Notes: generated by a model not told the origin, from the letters alone. DNA of 64,000 nucleotides from an uncultured delta proteobacterium (GCA_963836955.1 CAWILO010000005.1:207466-271465), one strand, 5' to 3'; positions 3,180 to 63,099 are shown, counted from the stretch's first letter. Made by a program: numbers and translations.

Positions 3180-4589
3180 ATGAGGCCCCGGGTTCTCAAG
3201 TCCCAGACTCCTGAGTTTAGAAAATTTCTCGCGGCGATACTTGCGCGCCGCGGCGGCGACGACAGCGCCGGCGTCGATCAAGCGGTCGCGAAGATAATCG
3301 CCGACGTGCGCAAGCACGGCGATCGTGCGCTGATCGATCTGACGGCAAAGTTTGACGGCGTGAAGCTTACCCCAGCGACGATTCGGGTGACGCCCGCCGA
3401 GCGGCATTCAGCGATCAATCGAATTGCGGCTGAAGATCGCCACGCGCTGGAGCTGGCTGCGGAACGAGTCGCGGAGTTCCATCGCCGCACGATGGAGAAA
3501 TCGTTCATCTATCGTGACAAGTCGGGGATGCGCCTCGGCCAGATGGTCCAACCAATGCACCGGGTTGGAATCTACGTGCCCGGTGGACTCGGCGCGTATC
3601 CGTCGTCGGTGTTGATGAATGCGATTCCCGCCAAGGTCGCGGGCGTTGCGGAAATCGTGATGGTCTCGCCACCGTCGGCGGAGGGCGAGCGACTCGCGGT
3701 GCTTGCGGCCGCGGAAATCGCGGCCGTCGACGAATTCTACCGCGTCGGCGGAGCGCAGGCGGTCGCGGCGCTCGCATACGGCACGGAAACTATCAAGCCG
3801 GTCGACAAAATCGTCGGGCCCGGCAACGCCTTCGTACAGGCCGCCAAGCGGATGGTTTACGGCGTTACCGATATCGACAAGATGGCGGGGCCGAGCGAGG
3901 TGCTGGTGATAGCCGACGAGCGCGCGCGTCCCGAATGGATCGCCGCCGACCTGATCGCGCAGGCCGAGCATGGTTCGGGCGACGAGGCGGCCGTGCTGCT
4001 GACAACGTCGGCGAGTATCGCGCAGCGCGTGGCCGAGGAGATCGAAATCGCGCTGAGAAGCCTGCCGCGTGCCCGCCAAGTCGAGGCCGCACTGGTCAAA
4101 AGGGGAGCGATGGTCGTCGTACAGGATTTGAATGAGGCCTTCGACCTGGCCAACGAGATAGCACCGGAGCATCTCGAGCTCGACGTGCGCAATCCGTCGC
4201 GATGGCTGCCGAGGGTCAAAGCGGCGGGCGCGGTTTTTCTCGGGCCGCTGACGCCGGCTCCGCTTGGCGACTATCTTGCGGGCCCGAATCACGTGCTGCC
4301 GACGGGCGGAGCGGCGCGTTTCGCGTCGCCTTTGGGTGCATACGATTTCCTGAAACGAACCAGTATAATCGAGGCCTCGATGGGCGCGATTGCGGCGCTC
4401 GGACCGGCCGTGGCGCATCTGGCGCGGATGGAAGGGTTCGAGGGTCATGCGCGCGCGATGGAACTTCGAGCGGGCGCTGATGGGAAGGCGAAACGGGCAG
4501 GCGGAAATCGAAATGCAAAGCCGGCAGGGGTGACCTCTGCACCCAGTATTAATGCAAAACAAACGAAAGAAACTACGAAACGAAACTAA
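3180..4589 (+). CDS. hisD: histidinol dehydrogenase with an unusual basic C-terminal tail of about 35 aa
   Basis: 469 aa. HisD-like throughout (GIYVPGGLGAYPSSVLMNAIPAKVAGV; QAEHGSGDEAAVLL). Typical HisD is about 430 aa; the Lys/Arg-rich tail overlaps the hisB start. Confidence 0.85.
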   Translation: MRPRVLKSQTPEFRKFLAAILARRGGDDSAGVDQAVAKIIADVRKHGDRALIDLTAKFDGVKLTPATIRVTPAERHSAINRIAAEDRHALELAAERVAEFHRRTMEKSFIYRDKSGMRLGQMVQPMHRVGIYVPGGLGAYPSSVLMNAIPAKVAGVAEIVMVSPPSAEGERLAVLAAAEIAAVDEFYRVGGAQAVAALAYGTETIKPVDKIVGPGNAFVQAAKRMVYGVTDIDKMAGPSEVLVIADERARPEWIAADLIAQAEHGSGDEAAVLLTTSASIAQRVAEEIEIALRSLPRARQVEAALVKRGAMVVVQDLNEAFDLANEIAPEHLELDVRNPSRWLPRVKAAGAVFLGPLTPAPLGDYLAGPNHVLPTGGAARFASPLGAYDFLKRTSIIEASMGAIAALGPAVAHLARMEGFEGHARAMELRAGADGKAKRAGGNRNAKPAGVTSAPSINAKQTKETTKRN

Positions 4590-5217
4590 GACGGCCGGTG
4601 CAGTCACGCTACTGCCGCCTGCCAAGTCGAAGCGTAGCGCGGAGGTCGAGCGCAAGACACGAGAGACTTCGGTGACCGTCGCACTGAAGCTCGACGGAGC
4701 AGGGCGTGGCGAAGCAAAGACCGGGGTGCCGTTCCTCGATCACATGCTGGAAAGTTTCGCGCGGCACGGATTTTTCGACCTCAAGGTCGAAGCCAGCGGC
4801 GATTTACATATAGACGATCACCACACGGTCGAGGACGTCGGGATCGTCGTCGGCAAGGCGTTTCGACAGGCGCTCGGCGATCGCGCCGGAATCAAGCGCT
4901 TTGGCGAGGCCACGGTCCCGCTCGACGAGGCCGTATGTACGGCGATTGTCGATATCAGTGGGCGCGCGTATCTCGGCTACAACGTCCTGATCAGCCAGGA
5001 ACGGGTCGGCAACTTCCAGACCGAGTTGGTGCATGACTTCATGAAGGCGCTGACGGACGAAGTCGGGATGAATCTGCATCTCAACCTGGTCAGCGGCCGC
5101 AACCCGCATCACATAATCGAGGCGACTTTCAAGGCGTTGGCGCGCGCGATGGACCATGCGACGGCGCGCGAGCCGCGGCTTTCCGGCGTGCTTTCGACCA
5201 AGGGCACGCTCAGCTAG
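4552..5217 (+). CDS. hisB: imidazoleglycerol-phosphate dehydratase
   Basis: IGPD motifs (RSAEVERKTRETSV; HIDDHHTVEDVGIV; GRNPHHIIEATFKA). The N-terminal 27 aa are non-conserved and the start is uncertain; the only in-frame ATG is at 4552. Confidence 0.8.
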   Translation: MQNKRKKLRNETKTAGAVTLLPPAKSKRSAEVERKTRETSVTVALKLDGAGRGEAKTGVPFLDHMLESFARHGFFDLKVEASGDLHIDDHHTVEDVGIVVGKAFRQALGDRAGIKRFGEATVPLDEAVCTAIVDISGRAYLGYNVLISQERVGNFQTELVHDFMKALTDEVGMNLHLNLVSGRNPHHIIEATFKALARAMDHATAREPRLSGVLSTKGTLS

Positions 5218-5222
5218 CCAGC

Positions 5223-5960
5223 TTGTTCGAGAAGTTCACCGTTATTCCCGCAATCGACCTGAAGGGCGGCAAAGTCGTGCGTCTGCTGCGCGGCGACATG
5301 AACCAGGCGACCGTCTATGGCGGCGACCCCGGTCAGACCGCACGAAGTTTCGAGGAAGAGGGCGCAGAGCTTATTCACATCGTCGATCTTGACGGTGCAA
5401 TCGCCGGGGCTCCGCGGAATGTCGACGCGATCGCGAAAATTCGGGCGGCGGTGAAATGCGCGATCGACGTCAGCGGCGGGCTCCGGACGATCGAGTCAGT
5501 TCGCGCGGGATTCGCGGCCGGGGCGGACAGGATCTCGATTGGCTCGGCCGCGTTGCTCGATCCAGAGTTGCTGACTCGGGCGTGTATCGAATTCCCCGGG
5601 CGAGTCTTCGGCTCAATTGACGTGCGGGACGGGCGGCTGACCATCAAGGGATGGGTGGAAACGAGTGAGCTCACGATCGCCGATGCGGCCGCTCGGTTTC
5701 GCACCGCGGGTGTCGCCGCTGTGATATTGACGGACGTCTCCCGCGACGGTGCGCAGACGGGAGTCGATGCGACGCGAGCGGCGGAGACCGCCAAGACGGT
5801 CCAGCTGCCGGTGATTGCGTCGGGCGGTGTCGCGAGCCTCGAAGACATTCGAACCCTTCGAGCAAGATTCGAGGCCGGAATCGTGGGCGTCGTCGTGGGA
5901 CGGGCTCTGTACGAAGGCAATTTCAGGCTGAGCGACGCGCTTTCAGCAGCTCGCAGTTAA
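5223..5960 (+). CDS. hisA: ProFAR isomerase (HisA)
   Basis: 245 aa with the HisA/HisF TIM-barrel N-terminus (VIPAIDLKGGKVVRL) and the C-terminal PVIASGGV motif. Confidence 0.85.
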   Translation: MFEKFTVIPAIDLKGGKVVRLLRGDMNQATVYGGDPGQTARSFEEEGAELIHIVDLDGAIAGAPRNVDAIAKIRAAVKCAIDVSGGLRTIESVRAGFAAGADRISIGSAALLDPELLTRACIEFPGRVFGSIDVRDGRLTIKGWVETSELTIADAAARFRTAGVAAVILTDVSRDGAQTGVDATRAAETAKTVQLPVIASGGVASLEDIRTLRARFEAGIVGVVVGRALYEGNFRLSDALSAARS

Positions 5961-5989
5961 CCGGACATCCGATTCGAACGTATCGCGAG

Positions 5990-6418
5990 CGTTGTCGCTA
6001 TAGCTACTTAATAACCCTCTAAATAGCCACGCCCTTTCTTTGTTTCCCTTGTGATTCAGGTAGTTGGTCTGGCCATAGGGCTCCGCACAGGCGCGACGCC
6101 AGCAGGCGTCGTAGTGTGCGTATTTGCTTACAGACGGTTAATTGAGGTCAATGCCCAATATTTCATGGCTATAGTCAGATTGAGTGGACATAGTATGCTT
6201 GACATATGCATGATGTATGTAGAAAATGTCGAAACTGGATATAGACATGAATTCTCAGTCTGAACTAAACGTAACCTATCAAGAGCAAATAGCGACCAGG
6301 ACTGAGTTGTCTAAATGGCGTATGTTGGTATTAGCTAGTAGATATCTTCTACATAATGGGTAGATTATCCTACAATCTGTAAAGTCACCGAGAGCGTGGG
6401 AGTATATCGATTCCCGCG
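5990..6418. promoter_or_regulatory. AT-rich (about 40% GC) non-coding leader upstream of the flp pilin genes; probable promoter and regulatory region
   Basis: About 430 bp with no credible ORF and a sharp GC drop relative to flanks. It lies directly upstream of the flp pilin genes. Confidence 0.35.
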
Positions 6419-6454
6419 ATGATTGATCGAAGTAAACGGACGGAGGGACACGAA

Positions 6455-6625
6455 ATGGATCTGATCAGGAAACTGTACGTGAAGGGCGACACGTTCGCGC
6501 GCGGCCAGACGATGGCTGAGTATGCGCTTATCCTCGCAGCCGTCGCAGTGATTGTCTACGCCGGATACCAGACGATGGGCACGACGATCACCGCGCTGCT
6601 AACCAGCGTCGACGGCAAGCTGTAG
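6455..6625 (+). CDS. flp: Flp/Fap family pilin, copy 1
   Basis: Prepilin processing motif G/QTMAEYALI followed by a hydrophobic helix (LAAVAVIVYAGY). The ORF finder starts at 6419; the ATG at 6455 (MDLIRK) is more likely. Confidence 0.7.
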   Translation: MDLIRKLYVKGDTFARGQTMAEYALILAAVAVIVYAGYQTMGTTITALLTSVDGKL

Positions 6626-6719
6626 TCGAACGGATATCGTCGCCAAGAACAGAGTTGGCCAAACCCCGGTGGGAGGCGTCGCGCCCCCACCTAACCAGGG
6701 CAGTTGGGAGCGCGTTTGT

Positions 6720-6887
6720 ATGGACCTGCTGAAAAGGGTGGCGGGGTTTTTCCGCCTGTCGAGGGGGCAGACGATGGCGGAGTATGCGTTGCTCCTGGCG
6801 TCCGTGGCGGTCATCGCCTATGCCGGCTATCAGAAGATGGGCACGTCCATCACGGCGGTACTGAGCAACGTTGATAGCAAGCTATAG
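6720..6887 (+). CDS. flp: Flp/Fap family pilin, copy 2 (tandem paralog)
   Basis: Same G/QTMAEYALL motif and hydrophobic core. C-terminus TAVLSNVDSKL parallels copy 1 (TALLTSVDGKL). Likely start is MDLLKR at 6720. Confidence 0.7.
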   Translation: MDLLKRVAGFFRLSRGQTMAEYALLLASVAVIAYAGYQKMGTSITAVLSNVDSKL

Positions 6888-7056
6888 GTGGTCGAACTGT
6901 CTGATCCTGACGCGTCAAGGGGCGATGTATCGCCGTTGCCACTGGAAGTAGCAAGCGAGCCAACGTCGCGAAGGGTTTTTGGCGAAAAAGGAATAGAAAC
7001 AAATGCACTTTGGCTGGCACAGCCGATGCGTGTCTGGGCTAACGCTGGAGAAGCGT

Positions 7057-7596
7057 ATGGGTACCTTTGACCGTCGCAGAGTAGACCAGGCCCGCTCAAT
7101 CCCACCGACCGCCGGACCTTCACGTTTCGGAGTGGCGAAGGGTCAGACCGCGGTCGAGTTCGCCATGGTCGCGCTACTTTTCTTTTTGCTGATCTTCGCG
7201 GTCATAGACTATGCGCGGGCTTTTTTCGTGCAGATGAACGTTCAGCAGGCGGTGCAGGATGCGGGACGGTTTGCGTCCACCGGCAACCATCTTACGAATC
7301 CCTCAACCGGCGCCCCTGATACTCGCGTACAGTCAATCATTCAGACGGTTGAAAACGAGGTTGTGGGAGTGCCCGGAGTAAATCCCAACAATCTTCAAAT
7401 TTCCGCCGTATCGGCCACCACCGGCGCGCCGACCGCAGGGGCGGGCGGCCCGGGAGACATCGTGACGCTGAGCCTCACCACCAACCTGCCATTGATGACA
7501 CCCCTGATTGCTCGGCTATTTTCCGGCGGGAATTATACCTTCATTTCGAGCGCGACTTTCAAGAACGAACCCTTTGACCCCGCCAACACGAACTAG
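7057..7596 (+). CDS. tadE: TadE-like pseudopilin
   Basis: TadE-like N-terminus GQTAVEFAMVALLFFLLIFAVIDYARAF. Likely start is MGTFDRR; the ORF finder started at 7003. Confidence 0.65.
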   Translation: MGTFDRRRVDQARSIPPTAGPSRFGVAKGQTAVEFAMVALLFFLLIFAVIDYARAFFVQMNVQQAVQDAGRFASTGNHLTNPSTGAPDTRVQSIIQTVENEVVGVPGVNPNNLQISAVSATTGAPTAGAGGPGDIVTLSLTTNLPLMTPLIARLFSGGNYTFISSATFKNEPFDPANTN

Positions 7597-7607
7597 GCTA
7601 GCGAAAG

Positions 7608-8153
7608 ATGTCATCGTCGTATCGTGCCGCCCGCAAGAAGCTCACATCAGCCGAATCCGGTCAGGCGGCGGTAGAGCTTGCGATGATCGTGACCCTGCTC
7701 TCGATTCTCATTTGCGCTGCGATCGATTTCGGCCGCGCGCTGAATTACATGCAGATTATCGCGGAGCTGACCCGACAAGGCTCGATGCTGGCGTCACGCG
7801 GTGAGCCCCTGGCAAACGCCGTCAAAGACGTAGGTACTGGGTCATCGGGCCTGGATCTAAGCGCCGGCTCCACAAAAGGCGAAGTCATTATTACCCAGGT
7901 TACCAACGTAAACGGCACCTATACCATCACCGGCCAGTCATCGCAGGGAAGTTTGGGGGCAGCCAGTAAGGTGGGGTCAGGAGTCGGAGCTACGGCTACC
8001 GTACCGTCTTCAGTGAGTGGCGACCTCCAAGTAGGCCAGACAATTTTCGTTACCGAGATATTCTACACATTTCAGCCGTTCACTCCGATCGGAGCAATGA
8101 CAAATAACGCCGTCTCCCTGCCGTCGACGCTATATGACTCGGCATATTTCTAA
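7608..8153 (+). CDS. tadF: TadE/TadF-like pseudopilin (second paralog)
   Basis: N-terminus GQAAVELAMIVTLLSILICAAIDFGRAL matches the TadE-like pattern. Confidence 0.6.
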   Translation: MSSSYRAARKKLTSAESGQAAVELAMIVTLLSILICAAIDFGRALNYMQIIAELTRQGSMLASRGEPLANAVKDVGTGSSGLDLSAGSTKGEVIITQVTNVNGTYTITGQSSQGSLGAASKVGSGVGATATVPSSVSGDLQVGQTIFVTEIFYTFQPFTPIGAMTNNAVSLPSTLYDSAYF

Positions 8154-8168
8154 GGACAACTGAAAGAG

Positions 8169-9407
8169 GTGAGTCTCTTGCATCAAAGAAAAACTGACAA
8201 ACACGAGAAGGGGCAAATTTTCATAGTGCTCGCCATCCTGATCCCTATTCTGATTGTGTTTGTCGGTCTTTCAGTCGACCTTGGTATGGCTTACTTAACC
8301 AAGACGACGTTGTCCAAGGCGGTCGATGCGGCCGCGCTCGCTGCCATGCGCAATATCAATCAAGGCCAGTCCAAGGCTGCCGCCGTCGCGACCAGTGCGT
8401 TTAACGCCAACTATCAGAGTGTACTGGGCTTTAGCGGCAATACCCCGACGCCCACAGTGGCGTGGAGTACAGACGCCAACGGAAACACGCTTGTTACTAT
8501 AAGTGCCACGGCCACACTCAACACATCCTTCATCCGAGTGTTGTCGATCCTGCCCGGGGTCGGCAGCACCTATAATACGTTGAGCATCTCTGAAAGCGCA
8601 CAAGCCATTCGCAATCCGCTGGTGATGTCGCTGATATTGGACAGATCGGGCTCCATGAATAACAACGGCGGAGCGGCCGCGCTTCCGGGCGCTGTGACCA
8701 CGTTTATAAGTTATTTCGATCAGACTGTGGACAACGCCGCTGAAATCAGTTTCTCGGGCGCCGACACCGTCGATTTCAAGATGAATACCAGCTTCATTCA
8801 GCCGATTACGAATGCAGTGGAAGGTCTGACTTACTCAGGCGGTACCTTCGCCCAAGGCGGCTTGCAAGACGGAGAAGCGCAGATTCTGACTAAGCCGCTG
8901 ACTCCGAACATAATAAGAGTAGCGGTCTTTTTTACCGACGGTTACGCCAATACCAACAACGACAACCTGCAATGTAATCCTCCGTCCCTCAAGACCACGA
9001 ACAGGAACTACGGCGGATGCGCGCCTATCGAGTTCGGCACGGTCTTTTTTATGAATCCGGCAACGGGTGATTGGAACGGGAACAACTGTAATGCGAAAAC
9101 CTTTCCCGTGCAGGCGCCGGGCGTCGGCAACTCGATGAACGTAACCAACATCACCAACGATGCGACTTATCGAACTGAGCAACTCGCCACCAAGATGCGC
9201 ACGAATGACAAGATTACGATTTACTCGATCGGGCTGGGCAACCTGATTATCAAGCCGTACCTGCAAGATATCGCCAATGATCCTGCCGCCGCCACGTACG
9301 ACGCCACGCAGCCAGTCGGCCAGGCGGTCTTCGCACCTGACGCGAGCCAGTTGCAGACCGTGTTCCAGATCATCGCGTCAAAGATTCTGCTGCGCCTCTC
9401 GCAATAG
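8169..9407 (+). CDS. tadG: TadG-like Flp pilus-assembly protein with a von Willebrand factor A domain
   Basis: N-terminal TM plus Tad-like segment (GQIFIVLAILIPILIVFVGLSVDLGMAY). vWA MIDAS motif LILDRSGSM, with downstream FFTDG and SIGLG motifs. Confidence 0.7.
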   Translation: MSLLHQRKTDKHEKGQIFIVLAILIPILIVFVGLSVDLGMAYLTKTTLSKAVDAAALAAMRNINQGQSKAAAVATSAFNANYQSVLGFSGNTPTPTVAWSTDANGNTLVTISATATLNTSFIRVLSILPGVGSTYNTLSISESAQAIRNPLVMSLILDRSGSMNNNGGAAALPGAVTTFISYFDQTVDNAAEISFSGADTVDFKMNTSFIQPITNAVEGLTYSGGTFAQGGLQDGEAQILTKPLTPNIIRVAVFFTDGYANTNNDNLQCNPPSLKTTNRNYGGCAPIEFGTVFFMNPATGDWNGNNCNAKTFPVQAPGVGNSMNVTNITNDATYRTEQLATKMRTNDKITIYSIGLGNLIIKPYLQDIANDPAAATYDATQPVGQAVFAPDASQLQTVFQIIASKILLRLSQ

Positions 9408-9446
9408 AGACGCCCGCACGCTATTACCAGCTCTCACACACCCGGG

Positions 9447-10472
9447 TCAGGTTGCGCCGTTGGGAGGACGTAGCCTGACCCGCGGATTCACGCACCATCG
9501 CGGCACGCGGCCCTCGAACACCGACAGGATATTGTCCACCGCCATCGCAGCCATCCTCGCGCGGGCAGTGATGCTCGCGCTGCCAATGTGAGGCGTGACT
9601 ATAACGATCTCGAGGCGCAGCAGCGGATCGCTGGAGGCGATCGGCTCGGGATCAGTCACGTCGAGACCCGCGCCGGCCAGACGGCGCGATTTCAGCGCCG
9701 CAATCATCGCAGCTTGATCGACGACCGCGCCGCGCGCCGTATTGATTAGAATCGCGCCGGGCTTCATCAGCGCGAGCTCACGCGCGCCAATCAGGTGGCG
9801 CGTCTTCGGCGTCAGCGGCACGTGAATCGATACGTAGTCCGATTCGGCCAGCAGGCGACGCAGACTGACGCCGACGGCGTCAGCAAGTTCGTTCTTCAGA
9901 GGCGGTGTTCGCTTACTCGATCGATGTTTGAGATAGCGCACGCGCATCCCGAAGCCAATCGCGCGCCGTGCCATCGCCTGCCCAATTGCGCCAAACCCGA
10001 CGAGCCCGAGAGTGCCGCCATGAATGTCTCGCCCAAGCATCGTCATCGGTCCCCACGTGCGCCAACTACCCGCGCGCACGTGACGGTCGGCCTCGGCGAT
10101 TCGCCTCGCGGTGGCCATAAGGAGGCCGAAGGCAAGGTCCGCGGTGGCCTCGGTCAGGACTCCGGGAGTGTGACCGACCGCGATTCCCGCGCGCGTCGCG
10201 GCGTCGATATCGATATTGTCCACGCCGACGGCCAGGTTGCTGACGACGCGCAGCCGCGGCGCGCCCGCTATGATGCGAGCGTCGAGCTTGTCGGTGACCA
10301 TCGAGAGTATCGCGTCGGCGTCTGCCAGCGCGTTTCGTAGCGCTGCCGCTGGCGGCGGCATCTCGCCCGGCCACACCTCAACTGAGGCCGCGGCGCGAAG
10401 CCGGTCGAGCGCGGCGTGATCGATCGCGCGGGTGACGAAGACTTTTCGGTGCAGGCGGGCGGGACGTGGCAT
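9447..10472 (-). CDS. D-isomer-specific 2-hydroxyacid dehydrogenase (glyoxylate/hydroxypyruvate reductase-like)
   Basis: NAD-binding motif GLVGFGAIGQAMARRA and catalytic region (INTARGAVVD; VTPHIGSAS). Start set at MPRPARL; the longer ORF would overlap the neighbouring gene. Confidence 0.8.
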   Translation of the reverse strand: MPRPARLHRKVFVTRAIDHAALDRLRAAASVEVWPGEMPPPAAALRNALADADAILSMVTDKLDARIIAGAPRLRVVSNLAVGVDNIDIDAATRAGIAVGHTPGVLTEATADLAFGLLMATARRIAEADRHVRAGSWRTWGPMTMLGRDIHGGTLGLVGFGAIGQAMARRAIGFGMRVRYLKHRSSKRTPPLKNELADAVGVSLRRLLAESDYVSIHVPLTPKTRHLIGARELALMKPGAILINTARGAVVDQAAMIAALKSRRLAGAGLDVTDPEPIASSDPLLRLEIVIVTPHIGSASITARARMAAMAVDNILSVFEGRVPRWCVNPRVRLRPPNGAT

Positions 10473-10506
10473 GCGGTAGGGTATCTCCGACGGTTCAAAT
10501 AGTTCT

Positions 10507-12702
10507 TTGGCTCTGCTATACGCGACAAGCGTGAGTGACTCCATCGTTTCATCGGTAATATCGTCGGCTCGAGCGAGCGGGCGGTCGGTTCTCACTGAAA
10601 TCGAGAGCAAGCGAATCCTGCATGCTCTCGGCCTGCCGGTCGTCGTGCCGGAGGTGGCAGCCACACCCGACGACGCCGTGCGGGCAGCGTCGCGAATCGG
10701 ATTTCCGGTAGTGCTGAAAGTCCTTTCGCCGGATGTGAGTCACAAGAGCGACGTCGGCGGTGTCGAGTTGAATCTCGAAAGTGAGAGCGCAGTTCGTGAC
10801 GCGTTCGAGCAAATCCGTGGCAATCTCGCCGCGAAGGCTCCTGGAGCAGGCTTCGGAGGCGTTGCCGTCCAGCCCATGGCGAAGAGTGGCATCGAGCTGA
10901 TCGCAGGGACGTTCCGCGACGACCGATTCGGCCCGATGGTTATGGTGGGGCTCGGCGGTGTGATGGTCGAAGTGATGAAGGATACGGCGCTGGCACTGGC
11001 GCCGATTGGCGGCCGCGAGGCGTCGCAGATGCTCAGGCGGCTCCGAGGCGCTCAGATTCTGCAAGGTGTGCGCGGCCAGCCAGGAGTCGATAACGACGCG
11101 ATCGTATCGCTGCTCGAGACCGTCTCGGGAATCGCCTGGACGCATCCGGAAATCGCCGAGATGGATCTCAATCCGGTCGTCGCGTACGAGGACGGACTCG
11201 CGATCCTGGACGCGCGAATCGTACTCGCCGCGGGTCCGTCCGGGACGCTGCAGCCGGACCCGAATCGCGCGGCGCGGCTGAAAAATCTTGAGCATGCGTT
11301 CAACCCGCGCACCGTCGTGGTTATCGGCGACAAGCGGATGGGCGGATACATGTGGCTGCGCGCGATGGCGCATCTGAAGGGCAAGCTCTACTCGGTCCAG
11401 ATCGATCCCAACGAGATACCTGGAATCGAGGCGATGGGCGTGGAGAATCGCAAGAGCCTTGCCGAGATCACCGAACCAATCGATTACGCGGTCAGCGCCG
11501 TCCCGCGGCAAATCGCCCCGCGAATTTTGAAGGATTGCGTTGCCAACCGGGTCGGCTCGATAGGATTTTTCACCTCGGGATTTTCAGAAACGTCGGAGGA
11601 GCTTGGAATCCGCCTGGAATCCGAGCTGCGCGATATCGCCGTCAACTCGGAAATTGCGCTGGTTGGCCCAAATTGCATGGGCTTGTACAGCCCGGGCGCC
11701 GGACTGTGCAATTTTCCCGAGGAGAAAGTGGGCGACGCGGGCGATGTCTGCTTCATCTCGCAAAGCGGCACGCACACGATCAACTTTTGCCTCCAGGCGC
11801 CAACCCACGGGATCACGGTCAACAAGGCCGCGTCGATCGGCAACGTTCTGGTACTCGAAGCGGCGGACTATATCGATCTGATGGCAGCCGAACCCGCGAC
11901 TCGCGTGATCGGGATGTATATCGAAGGGGTGCGCGACGGGCGGCGCTTCTTCGACAGCGTCAGGCACGCAGCCGAGAGTCATCCGGTCGTCATCTGGAAG
12001 GGCGGAGTGACCGAAGCGGGCGCACGCGCGACGTTTTCGCACACTGGGTCGCTGGCGACGGCCGAAGCGACCTGGCGTACCGTCGTGCGGCAAAGTGGCG
12101 CGGTCGAGGTGGTGAGCCTCGACGCGATGCTCGACGCGGTCCAGCTGTTCGCGCGCGCCAAGCGCATTGGTGGCAAACGGATGGGCCTGGTTGCGATGAC
12201 CGGTGGCCAGTCCGTCGTAATCACCGACACGTTTGCGACGGCGGGGCTCGAAATTCCGACGCTATCGGAGTCGTCCTACGACGAGTTGAAAACGTTCTTC
12301 AACATAATCGGCGGAAGCTACCGCAATCCGCTCGACGCGGGCGGCACGATCGGCGCCGGGCACCATCAGGGTAACCTCGAACGCATCCTCGAGATTCTCG
12401 AGCGCGATCCTGTAATCGACGCGATCGTGCTGGAGGTCGGCACGGGGCTGCGCGCGGCGCGATGGACCACGCACGAGGACGAGATCACGGGGCTGCTCGA
12501 TAAGCTGGCGGATTTTGCACAACGCTCGACCAAGCCGTTCGCTATCGTGATGCATCCTGCGCACGTCGAGACGATCGTCGCGCGGGGCAAGGAGCTTGCG
12601 CGCACGCGCGGGCTGGTCGTGTTCGACAGTTTCGAGCGTGCCGCAGCAGCGTTCCGGACGGCAGCAGACTACTGGACAAATCGAGCCCGTCTGGGCAGTT
12701 AA
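10507..12702 (+). CDS. ADP-forming acyl-CoA synthetase (NDP-forming acetate--CoA ligase family), fused ATP-grasp then CoA-binding/ligase-CoA domains
   Basis: 731 aa. N-terminal ATP-grasp (SKRILHALGLPV..VVLKV..DVGGVEL). CoA-binding (RTVVVIGD) and ligase-CoA regions (ISQSGT; FSHTGSLA) follow. Confidence 0.75.
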   Translation: MALLYATSVSDSIVSSVISSARASGRSVLTEIESKRILHALGLPVVVPEVAATPDDAVRAASRIGFPVVLKVLSPDVSHKSDVGGVELNLESESAVRDAFEQIRGNLAAKAPGAGFGGVAVQPMAKSGIELIAGTFRDDRFGPMVMVGLGGVMVEVMKDTALALAPIGGREASQMLRRLRGAQILQGVRGQPGVDNDAIVSLLETVSGIAWTHPEIAEMDLNPVVAYEDGLAILDARIVLAAGPSGTLQPDPNRAARLKNLEHAFNPRTVVVIGDKRMGGYMWLRAMAHLKGKLYSVQIDPNEIPGIEAMGVENRKSLAEITEPIDYAVSAVPRQIAPRILKDCVANRVGSIGFFTSGFSETSEELGIRLESELRDIAVNSEIALVGPNCMGLYSPGAGLCNFPEEKVGDAGDVCFISQSGTHTINFCLQAPTHGITVNKAASIGNVLVLEAADYIDLMAAEPATRVIGMYIEGVRDGRRFFDSVRHAAESHPVVIWKGGVTEAGARATFSHTGSLATAEATWRTVVRQSGAVEVVSLDAMLDAVQLFARAKRIGGKRMGLVAMTGGQSVVITDTFATAGLEIPTLSESSYDELKTFFNIIGGSYRNPLDAGGTIGAGHHQGNLERILEILERDPVIDAIVLEVGTGLRAARWTTHEDEITGLLDKLADFAQRSTKPFAIVMHPAHVETIVARGKELARTRGLVVFDSFERAAAAFRTAADYWTNRARLGS

Positions 12703-12785: not shown

Positions 12786-13985
12786 TTGGCATCTGAGGTG
12801 CTGAATATGGATCGGCTCATATCCGAAGATGCGCAGCCCTACTTCGAGAAGGTGCAGAAAATCGCGCCGATAATTCGCGAGCACGCCGATCGTGCCGAGC
12901 GCGAGGCACAGATGCCGCGCGAGGTCGCCGATGCGTTCCACAACGCCGGGTTGTTTCGAGTTTTACTTCCGCGCGAAATGGGCGGCGGGGGTCTGACGAT
13001 GCCCGACGTGATGCGGCTGTGCGAAGAAGTCGCGCGTATCGACGCATCCGCCGGATGGAATCTCGTAATATGCTCGGGCGGTCCGATATTTGGACAAAAC
13101 CTCTCGCGCCGGGCATTCGAAGAGATTTACGTCGATCCGCGTGGCGTCACCGCCGGTTCGCTGAATCCGATGACCAGCCAGGTATCGGCGGTCGAGGGCG
13201 GATGGCGTTTCAGCGGAAAGGCAACCAACGCCAGCGGCTCGGCTCACGCGACCTATCTGATGGCGACGGGAATTGTCCTCCACGACGGCGCGCCAAAAAT
13301 TGTCGATGGGTTCCCCCAACTGATTGCGGGGATGTTTCCTATCACGCATGCAAAGATATTGAACACCTGGTCCACCGCCGGGATGCGCGGTACCGGCAGC
13401 AACGATTGCGTGTTCGAAAATGTCTTCGTTCCCGATGAATTCACCTTCGATTGGCTCAACGCGAAGTCGCTGTGGCAGCGCGGTCCGCTCGGCAACATCC
13501 CATTGCAGCTGCTGATGGCGGGCAGCCTGGTAGCGCCGATCTTCGGTGCGGCGCGCCATGCGCTCGACACGCTGAACGAGATTGCGCAGGCGAAAGTCCC
13601 GGTGGCCAGTCGCGGCACATTGCGTGAGCGCCCAATCGCACAGACCCAGTTCGCGCAAGCGGAAGGTCTTCTTCAGGCGGCGCGTGCATATTTCTACAAT
13701 TCCAGTGAAGAGATCTGGCGCAAGGGAGAGGCCGGCGAGAGCTTCAGCGTCGAGGACCGAGCGCATGCGCGGCTCGCAGTAGTTACCGCTGCGAAGCTGG
13801 CGGTGCAGGCGGTTGATCTGGTCGCGGATGCGGCCGGGATGAGTTCGGCGCAAACCTCGTGTCCCATCGAGCGATGCTGGCGCGACGTGCACACCGCCTC
13901 GCAGCACGTGCTGATGAACACGTCCCGTTTCGAGGTGGTGGGACGCGTACTGTTCGGACTGGATCCAGGTTCGCCGGTGATCTGA
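12786..13985 (+). CDS. acyl-CoA dehydrogenase-fold flavin-dependent monooxygenase (HpaH/HsaA-like)
   Basis: 399 aa with an ACAD-like N-terminal/middle/C-terminal fold pattern. No CoA-binding signature, which is typical of group D flavin monooxygenases. Confidence 0.6.
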   Translation: MASEVLNMDRLISEDAQPYFEKVQKIAPIIREHADRAEREAQMPREVADAFHNAGLFRVLLPREMGGGGLTMPDVMRLCEEVARIDASAGWNLVICSGGPIFGQNLSRRAFEEIYVDPRGVTAGSLNPMTSQVSAVEGGWRFSGKATNASGSAHATYLMATGIVLHDGAPKIVDGFPQLIAGMFPITHAKILNTWSTAGMRGTGSNDCVFENVFVPDEFTFDWLNAKSLWQRGPLGNIPLQLLMAGSLVAPIFGAARHALDTLNEIAQAKVPVASRGTLRERPIAQTQFAQAEGLLQAARAYFYNSSEEIWRKGEAGESFSVEDRAHARLAVVTAAKLAVQAVDLVADAAGMSSAQTSCPIERCWRDVHTASQHVLMNTSRFEVVGRVLFGLDPGSPVI

Positions 13986-14015
13986 CCTGTTCCCTCGAAC
14001 CGTTGGCTATGAAAA

Positions 14016-15410
14016 CTACCGGGGCGGGGCGAGCACCGTCATCACCGTGCCCATCGTCGCGTCGCCATCCAGGAATGCCAGCCATCGACCTCTCAGCGAC
14101 CAACCCATCGTGACGATGCCTTGCGCGGGACCGGCGGCCAATAGAAACGCGCTGTCGTAGTGAAGCGAGTAGGTCACGATTTTTCGCCATGGCACCGGCT
14201 TGCTCGGCGCATAGATTTGCATCGCGGCTTCGTCCGCTCCCTTCGAATAGGCCATCGTGCTCTGCGCGAGCATTTCCGGCACCGTGTCGAAGCCGAGAGA
14301 TTTTACATCGACCTCAGCCTGGTCGGGTTTCGCTACTGCGACTTGCGCGAGCATCGCTGTTTCGGGCATCTCGAGCGCGCGCTTGAAGGTAAGTTGCTGA
14401 TTGCCCAGCGTGACGATAGCGCCGCCAGCCGCGAATGATGCAGCGCCCGTCGACACTCCCATCAGATGTTCGTCGCCGGTCGCGATGTTGTACCTCCAGA
14501 TGGCGATCGTATGGCGAGTGGGGTCAGGCCCGACGTAGAGGAATGAACCCTCGTCGTCCTTGTCCCAATCCAGCACGTGAATGGGCTCGCGCACGTGAAA
14601 CCGGGTGCAGGTCGAGTTGCGGCGGTCGAGGATAACCGGCGGGGCGTCCGCGTCGCCCTGGCCGACCGCATAGACACCATGCGCGCTCCAACTGAGCGCC
14701 GACATCGGGCATGAGAACTTCACCGGCGCGACGGAGCCGGCGCCCGAGACGACGATCAACTGCAATCCGTCCGCAGGAGTTGGCGGCGGATCGACGTCAG
14801 CTTGATCCGGATCGGACTTGGGCGCCTCTTCAGCAACGCCGGGTTCCGGGGGAGGTTCAGGATGGCGTCGCAGCGCAAGCGCGATCGTCGCATTGCTCAG
14901 CCAACTCATCGAGATGGAATCGTAGTGGCCGTTGAAGCTGGCGATCACGTTGCCGGGCCCGCTGGCGATCAGGTCGCGAACGACTACATCGACTCGACTG
15001 CCACCGCCGGCGACCATTGCAGTCGCAAGCGTCAGGCCGTCGGGGTTCGCAGCGACGTCAGCAATGGTTCCCTCTTCGGCCGCGCCCGGCCCCGTCTCGG
15101 CGGCCAGGATACGGCCGGTCCGCCACTCGGCGCCTCCCAGGCCGTACATAATCGTGTGGCCACCCTGCGTCCCGATGACGCCGATCTCTTCGCCGTTCTG
15201 CAGCCAGATTGGCGGGTGCGTCGGAATCGGCGCAAATCCCTGCGGCATCCCAACGTTGGTCAGCACCTTGATGCCGTTGGTGACCTGAAGCGTGGTCGAG
15301 CGCGCGAGAAACGGCGGCGGCCCCGGTTTGGGCGCATCCGCAGTCGTGGAGCATGACGCAATGCTCACGGCAGTCAGAGCAAGAATCCAGATGAGGACAG
15401 ACCTGAGCAT
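14016..15410 (-). CDS. hypothetical lipoprotein
   Basis: Signal peptide with lipobox (LTAVSIASCS). 464 aa, Gly/Ala-rich, no recognisable catalytic motif. Confidence 0.5.
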   Translation of the reverse strand: MLRSVLIWILALTAVSIASCSTTADAPKPGPPPFLARSTTLQVTNGIKVLTNVGMPQGFAPIPTHPPIWLQNGEEIGVIGTQGGHTIMYGLGGAEWRTGRILAAETGPGAAEEGTIADVAANPDGLTLATAMVAGGGSRVDVVVRDLIASGPGNVIASFNGHYDSISMSWLSNATIALALRRHPEPPPEPGVAEEAPKSDPDQADVDPPPTPADGLQLIVVSGAGSVAPVKFSCPMSALSWSAHGVYAVGQGDADAPPVILDRRNSTCTRFHVREPIHVLDWDKDDEGSFLYVGPDPTRHTIAIWRYNIATGDEHLMGVSTGAASFAAGGAIVTLGNQQLTFKRALEMPETAMLAQVAVAKPDQAEVDVKSLGFDTVPEMLAQSTMAYSKGADEAAMQIYAPSKPVPWRKIVTYSLHYDSAFLLAAGPAQGIVTMGWSLRGRWLAFLDGDATMGTVMTVLAPPR

Positions 15411-22668: not shown

Positions 22669-24516
22669 CCTGCGATGATCTGCATCCAAAGATAGGTTCG
22701 CAGCGCTGAACCTCGAATTGTAATCTTGCGTCCCGCGATCTCGCACTCGCCCTGCGATGCTTCGTCGGGCCACCAATAATGCTCCTGATGAAGATCGACG
22801 AACGGCAGAAACACGTGAGCGAATACAGCAGGGGATGAAGCCCGGTGACATGGTCGTCGGACGGCGGCGGCAAATTCTCCGGCCACGTCAGACGCATCAC
22901 GCCCGCCCGCTTTCCCATCAGCACGACAGCCCAGCCGACGAGAACAACCAATATTGACCAGTTGAACGCCAACAGCGGCCGATGCCCGTAGCCGATGGTC
23001 GCCTTTAGAAAGTCGCCCGACAGGCGTCCCAGCAGACCCTTCCTCTGGTAACGATCATCTTCCTCTGCGACGAGCACCGTCGCCGCGGCCGCATCCTCGC
23101 CGGTCCCGGCATAGTACTTCGCCAGCTCGTGGTAAGGTTGCGAACAAAATCCCGGGGGCTGAAGCGACAACCATCGAAGCCGGCTGTCAACTGAATTACG
23201 ATCGCCCACCGCGTCTCGTGCACGTCATCCGCAAGATTAGCGGTTCCGGATTCGAGACCGTTGTAAGTGAACCCGTCTATGATCAACTTTCCCGGCGCGG
23301 GCCAGCTCTTCTCGTCGTCCAGCAGCGACTCGACCGACGCGTCGCCAAGATCGAGTCGAGCGCCATTCTCCAGAGTGACGTTGTGCCAGGTAAATGCGCG
23401 CGCGACTGACATGCTCGTCCCGACAAAGCCGTGATCCTCGCCGGGCGCGCCTAAGAATTTTGCGTGGTCAACGATGAAGTTGCTGGCGAAGCGGTCGAAT
23501 GAGAAATTCGCGAGCCCCGTTACCTCGACCTCTCCATCCGTTCCCCAGCCCGCCAGGTAAACGACGCCCTCGACGCTCGCTCCCGGCAGCGCAATCGCGA
23601 CATTGTTTGGATTGATGAAGTGCCCGGAATCGAAGTGCAGATTGCCGCCAATCCTGGCGCCTCCGAGATCCACTGCGCCGTACGACACGAACCCCCGGTT
23701 CAGCCAGACGTTGCCTCCGACCTGGATCAGGTACGCAAACAAAGTTACACGGAGTCGATTGGGGAAAGGATCACCGGGACTTTTCGAATAGCGGAGAATC
23801 GCGCCTCCGAAGTCGAGATCGAGGCCGATCTTCGCGTGATCGAGCACAACCGCACCGACCGCATGAAATCCTTTGCCCAGGGTCAGATTGTCGCGAACGT
23901 TCAGGCCGCTGGCGTGCAGCCCCACCATATAGCTCCCGTCGAGTTCGAGCTCGGGAACTTCGGCGCCGCCGAGATTGATGATCTGTGCGAACACGCAGTT
24001 GCGCAGCACTATTGGAAACGGGACGTTGACGAGAGACAGATCGAAGCCGCCAACGATACGCCCTCCGACGACCCGGATACCCTTGGGATCGACCAGGCTC
24101 GCCGCCTCACGATCAACGCAAATCCATCGGATGAGCGAGGCGCGGATTTCGCGCGACGCGGGCCATTGCTCGGCATGGGCGGGGTCATTGGAGGGATCGG
24201 CGGGACTCGAGCTGGTTCCAGACGCCGCGAACTCACCGCGCTCTACATTGTCGATATCGCTGAACCAGAGCATCGCACGCTCGGCATCACTGAGATTCGA
24301 AAATCTCCGGGACGCCAGCGCGACAAGCCGGCTCGTGGCCGCCGGCGGCGGATGCGACGCGGCCTGGCAGATGTCACCGCCAATGATCATGCCGGCGAAG
24401 ATCGCGCACGAGAGCAATACCACTTCGCGCGTTCTCGACACCAAGCCGATGCTGCGCGCGCTGAATCTCGCGTTCATTCGAGACGCTTCAGAAAGTCGCG
24501 CAGCACGCGATCCCAC
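22658..24516 (-). pseudogene. membrane-anchored beta-helix repeat protein ('membrane-associated oxidoreductase'-like), frameshifted near 23180-23209
   Basis: The 503-aa ORF (23005..24516: signal/TM plus GG-x-L/N-type beta-helical repeats) and the 183-aa ORF (22658..23209: conserved LRWLS..PGF..PY..GYGHRP plus TM tail) are adjacent frames of one gene family. Confidence 0.45.
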
Positions 24517-26215: not shown

Positions 26216-27190
26216 TTAGCGGAGATCGAGATGGACTGAGGTTGGCGTGCCGCCGCGATTGATCGTGAGATCGATCGCCGACGCGGTCCTGATAGATTGC
26301 ATCAGGCCCAGCGCCTGCATCGGATTGGTGACGGGCTGTCCGTCGATCTTCGTCAGCAAGTCGCCGTCCTGCAGACCGAGCTGATCGAAGACCGAGCCCG
26401 GCGCGACCTGGGAGATCGAGAATCCATCCGTCTTGCCGTCGACGAAGTGGGGCAGGGCGCGCATCTGCGTGAAGAACGCCGCGGGATTCTGCATCGTCTG
26501 CGCGACTTCAGCGCGGTTGGCGACGAATTTTCCTGGACCTAACTTCTTCAGCTCGAGTTTGCTGTCGTCGCTATTGTCGTTGCTGTCGTCGTTGTTGTCG
26601 TTGCTGTCGTCGTCATCGTTGCCCGCCGCGGGATGACCATGCATTCTGCGCCGGATGGCCGCCGGAATTCCTCTGAGCATCGGCGCTCTCACCGCGCCGC
26701 CCAGCTCGGAAGGCGGTACTTCGGGCAGATCCGAAGTCGGAATGTCGATGGCGACGCGATGCCCGCTGCGGTCGATAATCGCGCGGTTGACTTCGACGGC
26801 TACCAGCCGGCCCGCATTCGGAATGTCTTCTCCGACCTGGTACAGCGATTCGTTGCCGGTGTCGTCCTCGATAATCGCATACGGCTTCGATTTGCTCTGG
26901 AGCGAAGTGCCGATCAGCTTCAGGTGCAAGTCCTCGACCACCACCGGCGCGGGCCCGGTCTCCTGCGGCACCGCGTTGAAGATGTCGCGCTTGACGATTC
27001 CGTCGTAGTACGTGCGCGTCCGCGTGCCGGCCGCGGTCCTCGCGGTGGAAGCAGCCACGGGCGCGTCGGGTTCATTGGCAACGGTGCGCTCGATCACGTC
27101 GCGCACGCACATCGCCGAGACGACCGCCAACGCGCCGACCAGCGCGAAGTTCAGAATCGTGACGTGAACTTGTGAGAACCTGAGTTCCAT
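26216..27190 (-). CDS. GspC-like protein: N-terminal TM, acidic low-complexity linker, C-terminal PDZ domain
   Basis: N-terminal TM helix (ILNFALVGALAVV). D/N/S-rich run GNDDDDSNDNNDDSNDNSDDS. C-terminal PDZ-like region (GSVFDQLGLQDGDLLTKIDGQPV). No other T2SS genes nearby. Confidence 0.5.
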   Translation of the reverse strand: MELRFSQVHVTILNFALVGALAVVSAMCVRDVIERTVANEPDAPVAASTARTAAGTRTRTYYDGIVKRDIFNAVPQETGPAPVVVEDLHLKLIGTSLQSKSKPYAIIEDDTGNESLYQVGEDIPNAGRLVAVEVNRAIIDRSGHRVAIDIPTSDLPEVPPSELGGAVRAPMLRGIPAAIRRRMHGHPAAGNDDDDSNDNNDDSNDNSDDSKLELKKLGPGKFVANRAEVAQTMQNPAAFFTQMRALPHFVDGKTDGFSISQVAPGSVFDQLGLQDGDLLTKIDGQPVTNPMQALGLMQSIRTASAIDLTINRGGTPTSVHLDLR

Positions 27191-44620: not shown

Positions 44621-44666
44621 CGTGCGTTGGCGTGGACGGATTAGGCTTGCCTTGCGAGGAGTTACG

Positions 44667-44738
44667 TGCCCCGGCCGGGAATCGAACCCGGACTTGAGGT
44701 TCCGGAGACCTCCGTGATGTCCTTTTCACTACCGGGAC
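44667..44738 (-). tRNA. tRNA-Arg (anticodon CCG)
   Basis: Manual fold of the reverse complement. Acceptor GTCCCGG/CCGGGGC (one GU pair), D stem GTGA/TCAC, anticodon stem GAGGT/ACCTC with loop CTCCGGA, T arm CCGGG-TTCGATT-CCCGG, discriminator A. CCA is not encoded. Confidence 0.8.
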
Positions 44739-61587: not shown

Positions 61588-63099
61588 ATGATCGAGCAAC
61601 AAAAATCGAGGCGGAAGAAATACCTGCGAATCGTACCAATCGTCGGGCTCGCGCTGATGGCATTCTCGCCGCCAGCGGGCGCGTTTGAGCACGGTCCATT
61701 CGGTGGCCCTGTCGTCTGGACCAGGAACAGCGCGCCTAGCGAAACGATGATCAAAGGGGGTGGGTGGACGTTGGAACAATCGGGAGCGGCCAACGGCCTG
61801 AAGTCGTCCGGCTATTGCGATGCAAGTCAAAATCAGATCGGCAATCCCGGCATCGAGCGAATGCAACCGTACTACTTCCCGACAATTTTCGGGGCTGGGA
61901 CTCACCTACAGGGATATTTTGACTGGCGTCCCAAAGATATTGATGAGGCGGTCGCCGCCGCATTTTCTGACGATGCCGGCCATACCTGGACCTTCCAGAG
62001 CAAGGTGCTGGAACTGCGGAAAGATTGTCCCACCCAGGCGAACAAGGAACCGGACGGCGAAAAAGACGCCGTCGGCGGCAACAACGCCGACAACGGCGAC
62101 GATGACGGCCAGGGGCATCAGTACATAATCAAGATCGCGGGCCACACCTACCTCTACACGCTCGTGCGAGCGGCGGGTCACATCGACGTAGACGATCTCG
62201 GCATTCACGACCTGTCTTCCACGGTTGCGAATCCATTGAACGGGGCTCCAGCGCTCACGGATGCTCCGACGGATCAATCGCCTCCGGGTACTCCGGAATT
62301 TCCGGTCCATACCATCGGCCTGCTGAATCCTGACGGGATTCTCGCCTCGATTCCGGGCACGTGGCCGTTGAAGGTCATTTATGAGCAGAAGATTCTGAAC
62401 GGCGACAATACCGGCTCGACAGCGCTTCCGGCCGCGCAGCAGTGTAACACGGCTTGGGCAGGCTTCTATGCTGCTAACGGCGGACTTTCGCCCAACGACG
62501 ACATCACCTACTTGCGCCTGGCGACGACCACTGACGGAGTACATTTTACGGATCTGGGTCAATTGCAGGGACTCAATGATCCCACGACGGTGTCGATCGA
62601 GGGCACGCGCTGGCTCGCGACAGCCGGCACCGTTATCAAGTTGTTTGGTGGACGATACGGGCTGCTGTTCTCCGGCGGTAATTGCATCGACGCCGACTCC
62701 GATTCGTTCCACTACATCGGTTATGCCGAATCGAATGATCTGCTCAACTGGACGGTGGTTAACGGCCTCAACAATCCGATCGCCTCGGTCTTCCCAGCGA
62801 CGGTTTCGGTGAACGCCCAAGGCGTCCCCGCCACCGGCCCCGGAACTTCCAATGTCACGATCCCTTCTGGCGAGCCGGTTGTGGGCGATACGCCTGGATT
62901 CTTTGCGGGCCGCGTCTATGCGCCGAGCGCGACCCAGTTGGATTTCAACGACATCACGGTGATCTTCGCGGGATATCACACCCAGAAGCCAAAGAACGGC
63001 CTGGGCGACTATCGGACTATCGGCAGAGTCAGCCTGCATTCTTCGCAATTTCTGGAAGAGGTCGGACCGGTTGGTGGTGGCGAGGGTGACGGCGACTAG
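61588..63099 (+). CDS. secreted hypothetical protein
   Basis: Signal peptide (IVPIVGLALMAFSPPAGA). 503 aa rich in Gly/Asn/Asp/Thr; no family recognised. Confidence 0.5.
   Translation: MIEQQKSRRKKYLRIVPIVGLALMAFSPPAGAFEHGPFGGPVVWTRNSAPSETMIKGGGWTLEQSGAANGLKSSGYCDASQNQIGNPGIERMQPYYFPTIFGAGTHLQGYFDWRPKDIDEAVAAAFSDDAGHTWTFQSKVLELRKDCPTQANKEPDGEKDAVGGNNADNGDDDGQGHQYIIKIAGHTYLYTLVRAAGHIDVDDLGIHDLSSTVANPLNGAPALTDAPTDQSPPGTPEFPVHTIGLLNPDGILASIPGTWPLKVIYEQKILNGDNTGSTALPAAQQCNTAWAGFYAANGGLSPNDDITYLRLATTTDGVHFTDLGQLQGLNDPTTVSIEGTRWLATAGTVIKLFGGRYGLLFSGGNCIDADSDSFHYIGYAESNDLLNWTVVNGLNNPIASVFPATVSVNAQGVPATGPGTSNVTIPSGEPVVGDTPGFFAGRVYAPSATQLDFNDITVIFAGYHTQKPKNGLGDYRTIGRVSLHSSQFLEEVGPVGGGEGDGD

Follow-up and report, generated by a model that had tools for sequence, protein, structure and literature searches.

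The DNA analysed here is a window of 64,000 nucleotides (GC content 61%) from an assembly labelled uncultured delta proteobacterium (GCA_963836955.1, CAWILO010000005.1:207466-271465). Between hisA and a convergent 2-hydroxyacid dehydrogenase gene, the window carries an AT-rich leader and five intact open reading frames (ORFs): flp1, flp2, tadE1, tadE2, and tadG, the last encoding a protein with a domain of von Willebrand factor A (vWA) type (Table 1). The segment belongs to a kind of operon already known, in which genes for Tad pilins and minor pilins are accompanied by one for a vWA tip protein of the TadG/CpaL type. We consider it likely that these genes supply the pilins and the tip of a Tad (Flp, type IVc) pilus and make up an operon pair of their own, away from the assembly machine. 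The nearest named relatives belong to Candidatus Binatus sp., and many Binataceae records carry the label "uncultured delta proteobacterium". A search of the literature on pili in Binatota or Binatia found nothing relevant.

Table 1. Genes and predicted elements of the module and its flanks, in window coordinates
Feature	Position	Strand	Details
hisD	3180-4589	+	5' flank of module
hisB	4552-5217	+	5' flank of module
hisA	5223-5960	+	directly 5' of the AT-rich leader
AT-rich leader	5961-6454	+	hisA stop codon to flp1 ATG; 494 bp; GC 0.449
Palindrome TCGCTATAGCTAC	5995-6007	.	35 nt past hisA stop codon
Sigma-70-like promoter for flp1-flp2 (predicted)	6199-6227	+	TTGACA-17 nt-GAAAAT; consensus scan, 10/12 matches
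Conserved box, predicted to be transcribed	6228-6290	+	nine-leader alignment
Putative 5' untranslated region (5'UTR) of flp1	6234-6454	+	about 220 nt; start placed from the predicted promoter
5'UTR hairpin	6395-6418	+	RNAalifold; 9 base pairs preserved in almost all of the 9 sequences, 3 of them with compensatory changes
Shine-Dalgarno of flp1	6442-6447	+	GGAGGG; ribosome-binding region invariant in leader alignment
flp1, Flp-type prepilin	6455-6625	+	56 aa; leader MDLIRKLYVKGDTFARG / mature QTMAEYAL...
GC-rich hairpin	6668-6691	+	GGTGGGAGGCG-TCG-CGCCCCCACC; after flp1, without T-run; RNAfold of 6620-6725
flp2, divergent Flp paralogue	6720-6887	+	55 aa; G/QTMAEYAL motif
Inverted repeat	6936-6954	.	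TTGCCA-N7-TAGCAA; sole match to TTGC[CTA]A-N6-18-T[AGT]GCAA in 64 kb
Sigma-54 -24/-12 promoter (predicted)	7015-7030	+	TGGCACAGCCGATGCG (TGGCAC-N5-ATGCG); 26 nt before tadE1 ATG
Shine-Dalgarno of tadE1	7047-7051	+	GGAGA
tadE1, TadE-like minor pilin 1	7057-7596	+	179 aa; TadE PF07811 53.5 bits; site G/QTAVEF
tadE2, TadE/TadF-like minor pilin 2	7608-8153	+	181 aa; PF07811 33.9 bits; site G/QAAVEL
tadG, modular minor pilin, C-terminal vWA with metal-ion-dependent adhesion site	8169-9407	+	412 aa
2-hydroxyacid dehydrogenase	9447-10664	-	convergent; 3' flank of module

Two prepilin genes and a minor-pilin trio

The initial annotation had read the genes as two Flp pilins with a G/QTMAEYAL processing motif, two TadE-type proteins and a TadG-vWA protein, and Pfam searches (cut-offs: Flp_Fap PF04964, 32.2 bits; TadE PF07811, 22.9 bits; Tad PF13400, 22.3 bits) together with the motifs confirm these identifications. 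flp1 and flp2 encode short prepilins, within the 50-80 aa or so typical of Flp, with G/XXXXEY cleavage sites, ARG/QTMAEYALILAAVAV and SRG/QTMAEYALLLASVAV respectively, ahead of a hydrophobic helix. Among the matches listed, 120 Flp proteins are 80-91% identical to Flp1; they come from many contigs, some labelled Candidatus Binatus, and homologues in this identity range have a precomputed PF04964 assignment. The mature parts of Flp1 and Flp2 are 77% identical and the genes share a 128-nt direct repeat of 76% identity, which marks them as a diverged tandem duplicate. The hairpin that follows flp1 may serve in attenuation or in transcript stabilisation.

The tadE1 and tadE2 genes are separated by 11 nt. 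Both proteins score above the PF07811 cut-off and have an N-terminal G/XXXXE[FLY] prepilin site, the G/QxxxE motif being kept in 70 of 85 TadE1 homologues and 64 of 85 TadE2 homologues. To judge from these motifs, both Flp and both TadE proteins bear the site of a TadV/CpaA-type prepilin peptidase, G/XXXXE[YFL].

TadG matches PF13400 at its N-terminus (45.7 bits, residues 15-61) and the VWA domain PF00092 (41.5 bits), each score exceeding its threshold, and its processing site, G/QIFIV, is without the glutamate at +5. The protein joins an N-terminal pilin segment to a vWA domain with a complete MIDAS (metal-ion-dependent adhesion site; DxSxS, T, D). The MIDAS residues D158, S160, S162, T226, and D257 are invariant in 86 homologues, and DxSxS is present in 95 of 95. 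An AlphaFold2 model (pLDDT 89.2, pTM 0.82) contains a helix at residues 14-61, a pilin-type beta-sheet at 96-148, and a vWA fold. In a Foldseek search its top PDB match was PilB of Streptococcus sanguinis (7B7P/7BA2, E about 2e-13), followed by SpaC, a Catenulispora vWA protein, mussel PTMP1, LapA-vWA, and Mfa5. The PilB match is nearly full-length (390 aligned columns) and PilB likewise combines a pilin module with a vWA adhesin domain; at 14% identity, a TM-score of 0.41, and a root-mean-square deviation of about 10 angstroms, the two have the arrangement in common and not the relative orientation. PilB, unlike TadG, comes from a monoderm bacterium, where it is part of a type IVa pilus.

Caulobacter crescentus CpaL is a vWA minor pilin placed by modelling at the tip of the Tad pilus, together with CpaJ and CpaK (PMC12607857). 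Like TadG, CpaL fuses a pilin module to a vWA domain whose MIDAS follows the pattern DxSxS...T...D, has two TadE-type partners, and counts PilB 7B7P, SpaC, and Mfa5 among its PDB neighbours, a likeness of architecture; unlike the 412-residue TadG, it is about 626 residues long, and its vWA fold is interrupted by two beta-rich domains (PMC12607857).

A scan with a TadG alignment, taking one genome per species, gave 80 loci in Binataceae, Acidobacteriota, Verrucomicrobiia, and Nevskiaceae; the genes at each locus were counted on a tblastn map. Of 91 related loci (cited below by L numbers), 80 have the genes in the order tadE-tadE-tadG, and the trio is the conserved core of the module. An flp gene lies within 2.6 kb upstream in just 15 of 74 cassettes. 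The fixed order of the trio provides indirect support for a tip location of TadG with two minor pilins. Across four phyla the trio behaves as a portable, fast-evolving unit, mostly found away from motor genes. Such behaviour agrees with the "tip complex" view recently taken of Tad pili, and widens that view to uncultured lineages from soil.

In Myxococcus xanthus, each of four dispersed Tip clusters of KilL, KilM, and KilN, which are TadE/F/G-like, primes the Kil pilus (PMC12075869). As described there, the Kil system resembles the present one in having three-gene TadE/TadF/TadG-like cassettes, of which three out of four lie apart from the machine genes; in having several paralogous cassettes per genome, one of them with its own Flp (KilO); and in placing a variable outer domain on the large TadG-like subunit (PMC12075869). 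The domain of KilN4 is of unknown fold, unlike the vWA domain found here, and Kil serves contact-dependent prey killing, whereas the present locus gives no sign of predation (PMC12075869). Unlike the Kil cassettes, the cassette in the window has two major-type flp genes joined to it and keeps a fixed place at a housekeeping site.

Leader and promoters of the two gene groups

The leader between hisA and flp1 holds the lowest-GC 400-bp stretches of the 64 kb. The initial annotation was right that it is AT-rich and non-coding, and its length, given there as 430 bp, is 494 bp; orthologous leaders measure 438-497 bp with a GC of 0.43-0.49. In an alignment of nine hisA-linked leaders, the upstream half is poorly conserved with the exception of the palindrome TCGCTATAGCTAC. 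This element, whose exact sequence occurs once in the window, is kept in five of the nine (the window, L003, L006, L009, and L058) while its surroundings are not, and could be a regulator site or a 3' element of hisA. The -35 hexamer TTGACA and, in the -10 element, the G-A-A-T positions are invariant or nearly so in all nine leaders, giving the consensus TTGACA-17-GA(G/A)AAT. The leader had been guessed to be a site for nucleoid-protein or regulator binding; the comparison instead brings out a sigma-70-like promoter and, after it, a long 5'UTR, both of them conserved. Outside the hairpin at 6395-6418, RNAalifold detected little covariation in the 5'UTR (covariation term -0.74 kcal/mol). An Rfam scan of 5800-9600, with E-values up to 10, returned just two chance microRNA matches; the leader is thus no riboswitch of a known class. 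A small upstream ORF of 45 codons (6226-6363) was considered and rejected, its ATG overlapping the -10 element and L014 having a 10-nt frame-breaking deletion there.

A second candidate promoter, missed in the initial annotation together with the palindrome upstream of it, lies in the spacer between flp2 and tadE1. The element TGGCACAGCCGATGCG agrees with 9 of 11 specified positions of the sigma-54 consensus TGGCAC-N5-TTGCW (GG-N10-GC core). The spacer was aligned across ten cassette upstream regions, orthologues and paralogues together; TGGCA..G.C.ATGC is invariant in all ten, with variable flanks. Upstream of tadE1, sigma-54 scores of at least 9 were obtained in 25 of 83 loci, compared with 21 of 415 random segments. 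In the inverted repeat at 6936-6954, the TTGC and GT-GCA positions are likewise invariant in the ten regions, and we regard it as a candidate upstream site for a sigma-54 activator.

The pattern TGGCAC-N5-.TGC. also precedes flp at separate loci that carry Tad machine genes (L096 and L098) and rcpC in L038. A sigma-54 activator gene lies beside the machine or a cassette in L038, L035, L036, L012, L087, L098, and Acidobacteriota loci; no Sigma54_activat domain was found in the window. Because sigma-54 elements stand at both tadE1 and the machine genes, with regulators beside both, the tip cassette appears to be part of the machine's sigma-54 regulon, with the hisA-linked flp pair probably under its own sigma-70-type promoter and long leader. 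If so, pilin supply and tip supply would be under different promoter types, a testable model of piliation switching. At the machine loci, the -24/-12 element TGGCACGAGAGATGCT lies about 190 nt before the first flp (L098 2245-2260; L096 9805-9820), in contrast with the sigma-70-type promoter of the hisA-linked flp genes.

Whereabouts of the Tad machinery

The canonical tad locus of Aggregatibacter actinomycetemcomitans, flp-tadV-rcpCAB-tadZABCDEFG, is a single operon. The module in the window draws on the same Flp, TadE, TadF, and TadG families with G/XXXXE[YF] sites; unlike that locus, its genes for pilins and minor pilins stand apart from the machine and are preceded by two types of predicted promoter, and its TadG has a vWA domain. 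Pfam scans of about 60 probable-gene ORFs, with synteny for the remainder, detected no T2SSE ATPase, T2SSF protein, secretin, RcpC, TadZ/ParA-like protein, or A24 peptidase in the window; a few ORFs have no Pfam match at all, and short TadV-type peptidases below the ORF cut-off were not searched exhaustively. The 10 kb of upstream synteny in relatives likewise contains no machine genes. The absence of the Tad machinery from the window, as initially annotated, is thereby confirmed, and the 64 kb do not contain a complete Tad locus, or "widespread colonization island", in which ATPase, TadB/TadC, secretin, TadZ/CpaE, and TadV/CpaA accompany the pilin genes.

Such an absence might mean that the module is an orphan remnant, the Tad machine having been lost and the genes either decaying or serving independently of a pilus, for example as a membrane-anchored vWA protein. 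In 79 of the 91 related loci, too, no machine gene lies within 10 kb, and a TadG without the glutamate at +5 might stay anchored in the membrane. Against a remnant, all five ORFs are intact, processing motifs and MIDAS are conserved (DxSxS in 95 of 95 homologues), the promoters are conserved, mature Flp shows 80-91% conservation over many contigs, and relatives do have machine loci, one with a CpaF labelled Candidatus Binatus sp. We therefore judge a remnant very improbable.

A machine gene does lie within the fetched 10 kb in the other 12 of the 91 loci. In the Binataceae locus L038, Pfam identifies RcpC, a secretin, a ParA-like TadZ, T2SSE, two T2SSF proteins, and a sigma-54 response regulator, laid out as trio-sigma-54 response regulator-(convergent) tadC-tadB-cpaF-tadZ-secretin-rcpC. 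Its CpaF, used as a query, retrieved CpaF proteins labelled Candidatus Binatus sp. A separate machine locus (L093/L096 and L098) reads DUF192-flp (one to four copies)-rcpC-secretin-tadZ-cpaF-tadB-tadC, in some cases continued by GT87 and a sigma-54 regulator. These loci adjoin haem-biosynthesis genes, and the CpaF of L098 is labelled Candidatus Binatus sp. by NCBI. The Flp encoded directly upstream of rcpC in L093/L096 is 82% identical overall to Flp1, and L098 is arranged alike. Mature Flp is about 90% identical between L098 and the hisA-linked locus L005, and these are two megabase-scale contigs of one metagenome assembly, which is suggestive, though not proof, of an origin in one genome. 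In L001/L018 (a 3.57-Mb contig) the trio occupies the hisA site with no flp, and its pilins must therefore come from elsewhere. The initial suggestion that the locus is split, with machinery encoded elsewhere, is thus supported for the lineage by Binataceae machine loci with near-identical Flp; that the window's own genome also carries the machine is probable by extension. Up to four tandem flp genes lie in L098 (2449-3418), the fourth being divergent and without a Pfam match.

The type of ATPase bears on whether another type IV filament machine, a type II secretion system (T2SS) or a type IVa pilus, serves the module in place of a CpaF-type Tad machine. A stand-alone gspC lies 17 kb away in the window (26216-27190), and in three Verrucomicrobiia loci an ATPase of the PilB/GspE type, not CpaF, lies 3-6 kb from the trio. 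In Binataceae, Acidobacteriota, and Nevskiaceae, in contrast, the trio-adjacent ATPase is always of the CpaF type (GGTG[SAT]GKTT, RMRPDRI) and accompanied by TadB/C, TadZ, and RcpC. The 2007 review by Tomich, Planet and Figurski is also said to treat Flp-type pilins with G/XXXXEY sites as specific to Tad systems, which likewise weighs against service by another machine. We consider such service highly unlikely. The Verrucomicrobiia ATPases are proteins of 571-622 residues with a GPTGSGKTS motif (L065 12954-14666, L073 9782-11494, L085 16825-18690).

We therefore return to a Tad pilus module separated from its machine, for which the following course is proposed. The sigma-70-like promoter at 6199-6227 and the leader RNA of about 220 nt would drive expression of the two Flp major-pilin paralogues, which would supply the fibre subunits. 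The sigma-54 promoter at 7015-7030, with the palindrome at 6936-6954, would drive the tightly packed tadE-tadE-tadG genes. The two TadE-type proteins and the pilin-like N-terminus of TadG may form a three-helix priming complex that starts fibre assembly and stays at the tip, where the exposed vWA/MIDAS domain of TadG could act as a metal-dependent adhesin or a force sensor. Processing, polymerisation, and secretion would be carried out by a machine encoded elsewhere (rcpC, secretin, tadZ, cpaF, tadB, tadC, and a prepilin peptidase), with a sigma-54 response regulator encoded there too. We infer the assembly of the tip complex, the adhesin role, and the identity of the acting regulator. As annotation, a fibre-and-tip operon of a Tad pilus split from its machine is routine.

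Several points weigh against this interpretation. The source genome is represented by these 64 kb, and no contig was found to carry both a hisA-linked module and a machine locus. The match lists of TadG and CpaF have no contig in common; only Flp and CpaF coincide (on contigs of 319,507 and 242,900 bp). Neither the window nor any of the loci fetched yielded a prepilin peptidase, and in NCBIfam none of the five module proteins receives a named model. Flp1 scores 31.8 bits against Flp_Fap, narrowly under the cut-off, and Flp2 23.4 bits. Both promoters are predicted from sequence conservation, and over the whole window sigma-54-like matches are not enriched (16 found, 24 expected).

A bolder reading is that Binataceae, an uncultured lineage of soil, re-tool one sigma-54-controlled Tad machine with several interchangeable tadE-tadE-tadG(vWA) tip cassettes, much as Myxococcus uses its Kil tips, the hisA locus being a second, sigma-54-independent pilin supply under an undescribed leader RNA of about 220 nt. 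Several Binataceae metagenome-assembled genomes (MAGs) do have two or three diverged cassettes, and the types at the hisA site differ between genomes. We put this forward only tentatively and think it rather unlikely to hold as a whole.

Base composition and history of the hisA site

The segment 5961-9407 has a GC of 0.544, whereas other 3.4-kb windows average 0.612 (standard deviation 0.015, minimum 0.574); at about 4.5 standard deviations below the mean, it is the lowest-GC 3.4-kb stretch of the window. The lower GC noted initially is therefore real. Expected GC was calculated for each gene by recoding its amino acids with the codon frequencies of 46 reference genes. For tadE1, tadE2, and tadG, observed minus expected GC is -0.03 to -0.04 (z about -2 to -3), a mild codon shift. 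The residues of TadG predict a GC of 0.570, as against 0.619 for the reference genes, so that about half of the TadG deficit is explained by amino-acid composition. GC at third codon positions (GC3) is 0.83 in flp1 and 0.84 in flp2, compared with a reference-gene mean of 0.75. Comparison of GC and codon usage with the rest of the window thus upholds the dip, with a mild shift in the trio, and finds the flp genes host-like. The sources of the dip are the non-coding leader, amino-acid composition, and the mild codon shift in tadE1, tadE2, and tadG.

Low GC had suggested a separately acquired island, considered here as a foreign pilin module recently inserted between hisA and the dehydrogenase gene and borrowing a resident machine. 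Besides the dip and the codon shift, such an event would be in keeping with the insertion sequence (IS) elements, inverted cassette, and extra Tad genes in the hisA-dehydrogenase interval of some Binataceae (L012/L021), with a 3.6-kb cassette segment present in two copies of 99.7% identity in one MAG, and with a cassette type at the hisA site that varies by genome: across hisA-linked relatives, identity is 40-66% for TadG, 64-79% for hisA, and 65-91% for the ATP-grasp ligase. Patchy presence, however, was not seen. Every Binatus-like locus fetched has the module at the hisA site, across deep divergence, in the neighbourhood L31-RF1-prmC-EPSP-synthase-family gene (murA/aroA type)-hisD-hisB-hisA-gap-flp-tadE-tadE-tadG-(2-hydroxyacid dehydrogenase)-ATP-grasp ligase (L001, L003-6, L009-10, L014, L016-18, L020, L042, L050, L052, L058, and L067). 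The dip recurs there, with a module GC of 0.54-0.55 against 0.63-0.65 for the rest of the locus. Because relatives with such diverged TadG proteins carry the same neighbourhood and the same dip, the arrangement is old and vertically kept. The host-like codons of the flp genes and the share of the TadG deficit owed to amino-acid composition also argue against a foreign origin. The only tRNA gene in the window lies at 44666-44738, with none within 35 kb of the module; no integrase domain occurs among the Pfam-scanned ORFs of the window, and the only flanking direct repeats found are short and at chance level. A recent acquisition is thereby largely refuted, and we rate it as very unlikely. The island-like look is explained by fast-evolving surface-protein genes and an AT-rich regulatory region. 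More generally, a low-GC patch of surface-protein genes beside housekeeping genes need not mean horizontal transfer. A 17-nt inverted repeat (5960-5976 and 10693-10709, 94% complementary) bracketing the module and the dehydrogenase gene was set aside as probably due to chance, since it is not conserved in orthologues.

The number of flp copies at the hisA site ranges from none (L001/L018) to three (L016), and L014 has a second tandem trio there. The enlarged interval of L012/L021 contains, besides an inverted trio and two extra genes for 366-residue Tad-domain proteins, a sigma-54 response regulator and IS transposases (DDE_Tnp_1, rve); the site seems to accumulate Tad-related genes. The two-copy segment of MAG MFD05705.bin.1.131 comprises the trio and an HTH_17 gene (L030 8994-12631, L031 2021-5658); it was either duplicated recently or doubled in assembly or binning. 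In L007, L008, L012, and L025 the same cassette type is likewise followed by an HTH_17 gene.

Elsewhere in the neighbourhood, a PhdYeFM/ParE toxin-antitoxin pair follows the acyl-CoA dehydrogenase gene in L003-L006 (L003 15826-16372) and is absent at the corresponding junction of the window (13985-14016). Three ORFs of 464-503 codons with host-like GC3 have no Pfam match: 14016-15410 and 23005-24516 on the minus strand, and 61588-63099 on the plus strand. The first keeps its synteny in relatives, where it also lacks a Pfam match. The stand-alone gspC, on the minus strand, matches NCBIfam GspC_delta with 152.7 bits (cut-off 150) and Pfam T2SSC and PDZ. Its neighbours are genes for a hydrolase, a GNAT acetyltransferase, and a lactonase, and the 64 kb contain no other type II secretion genes. 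It is a second example in this genome of scattered envelope-machine genes.

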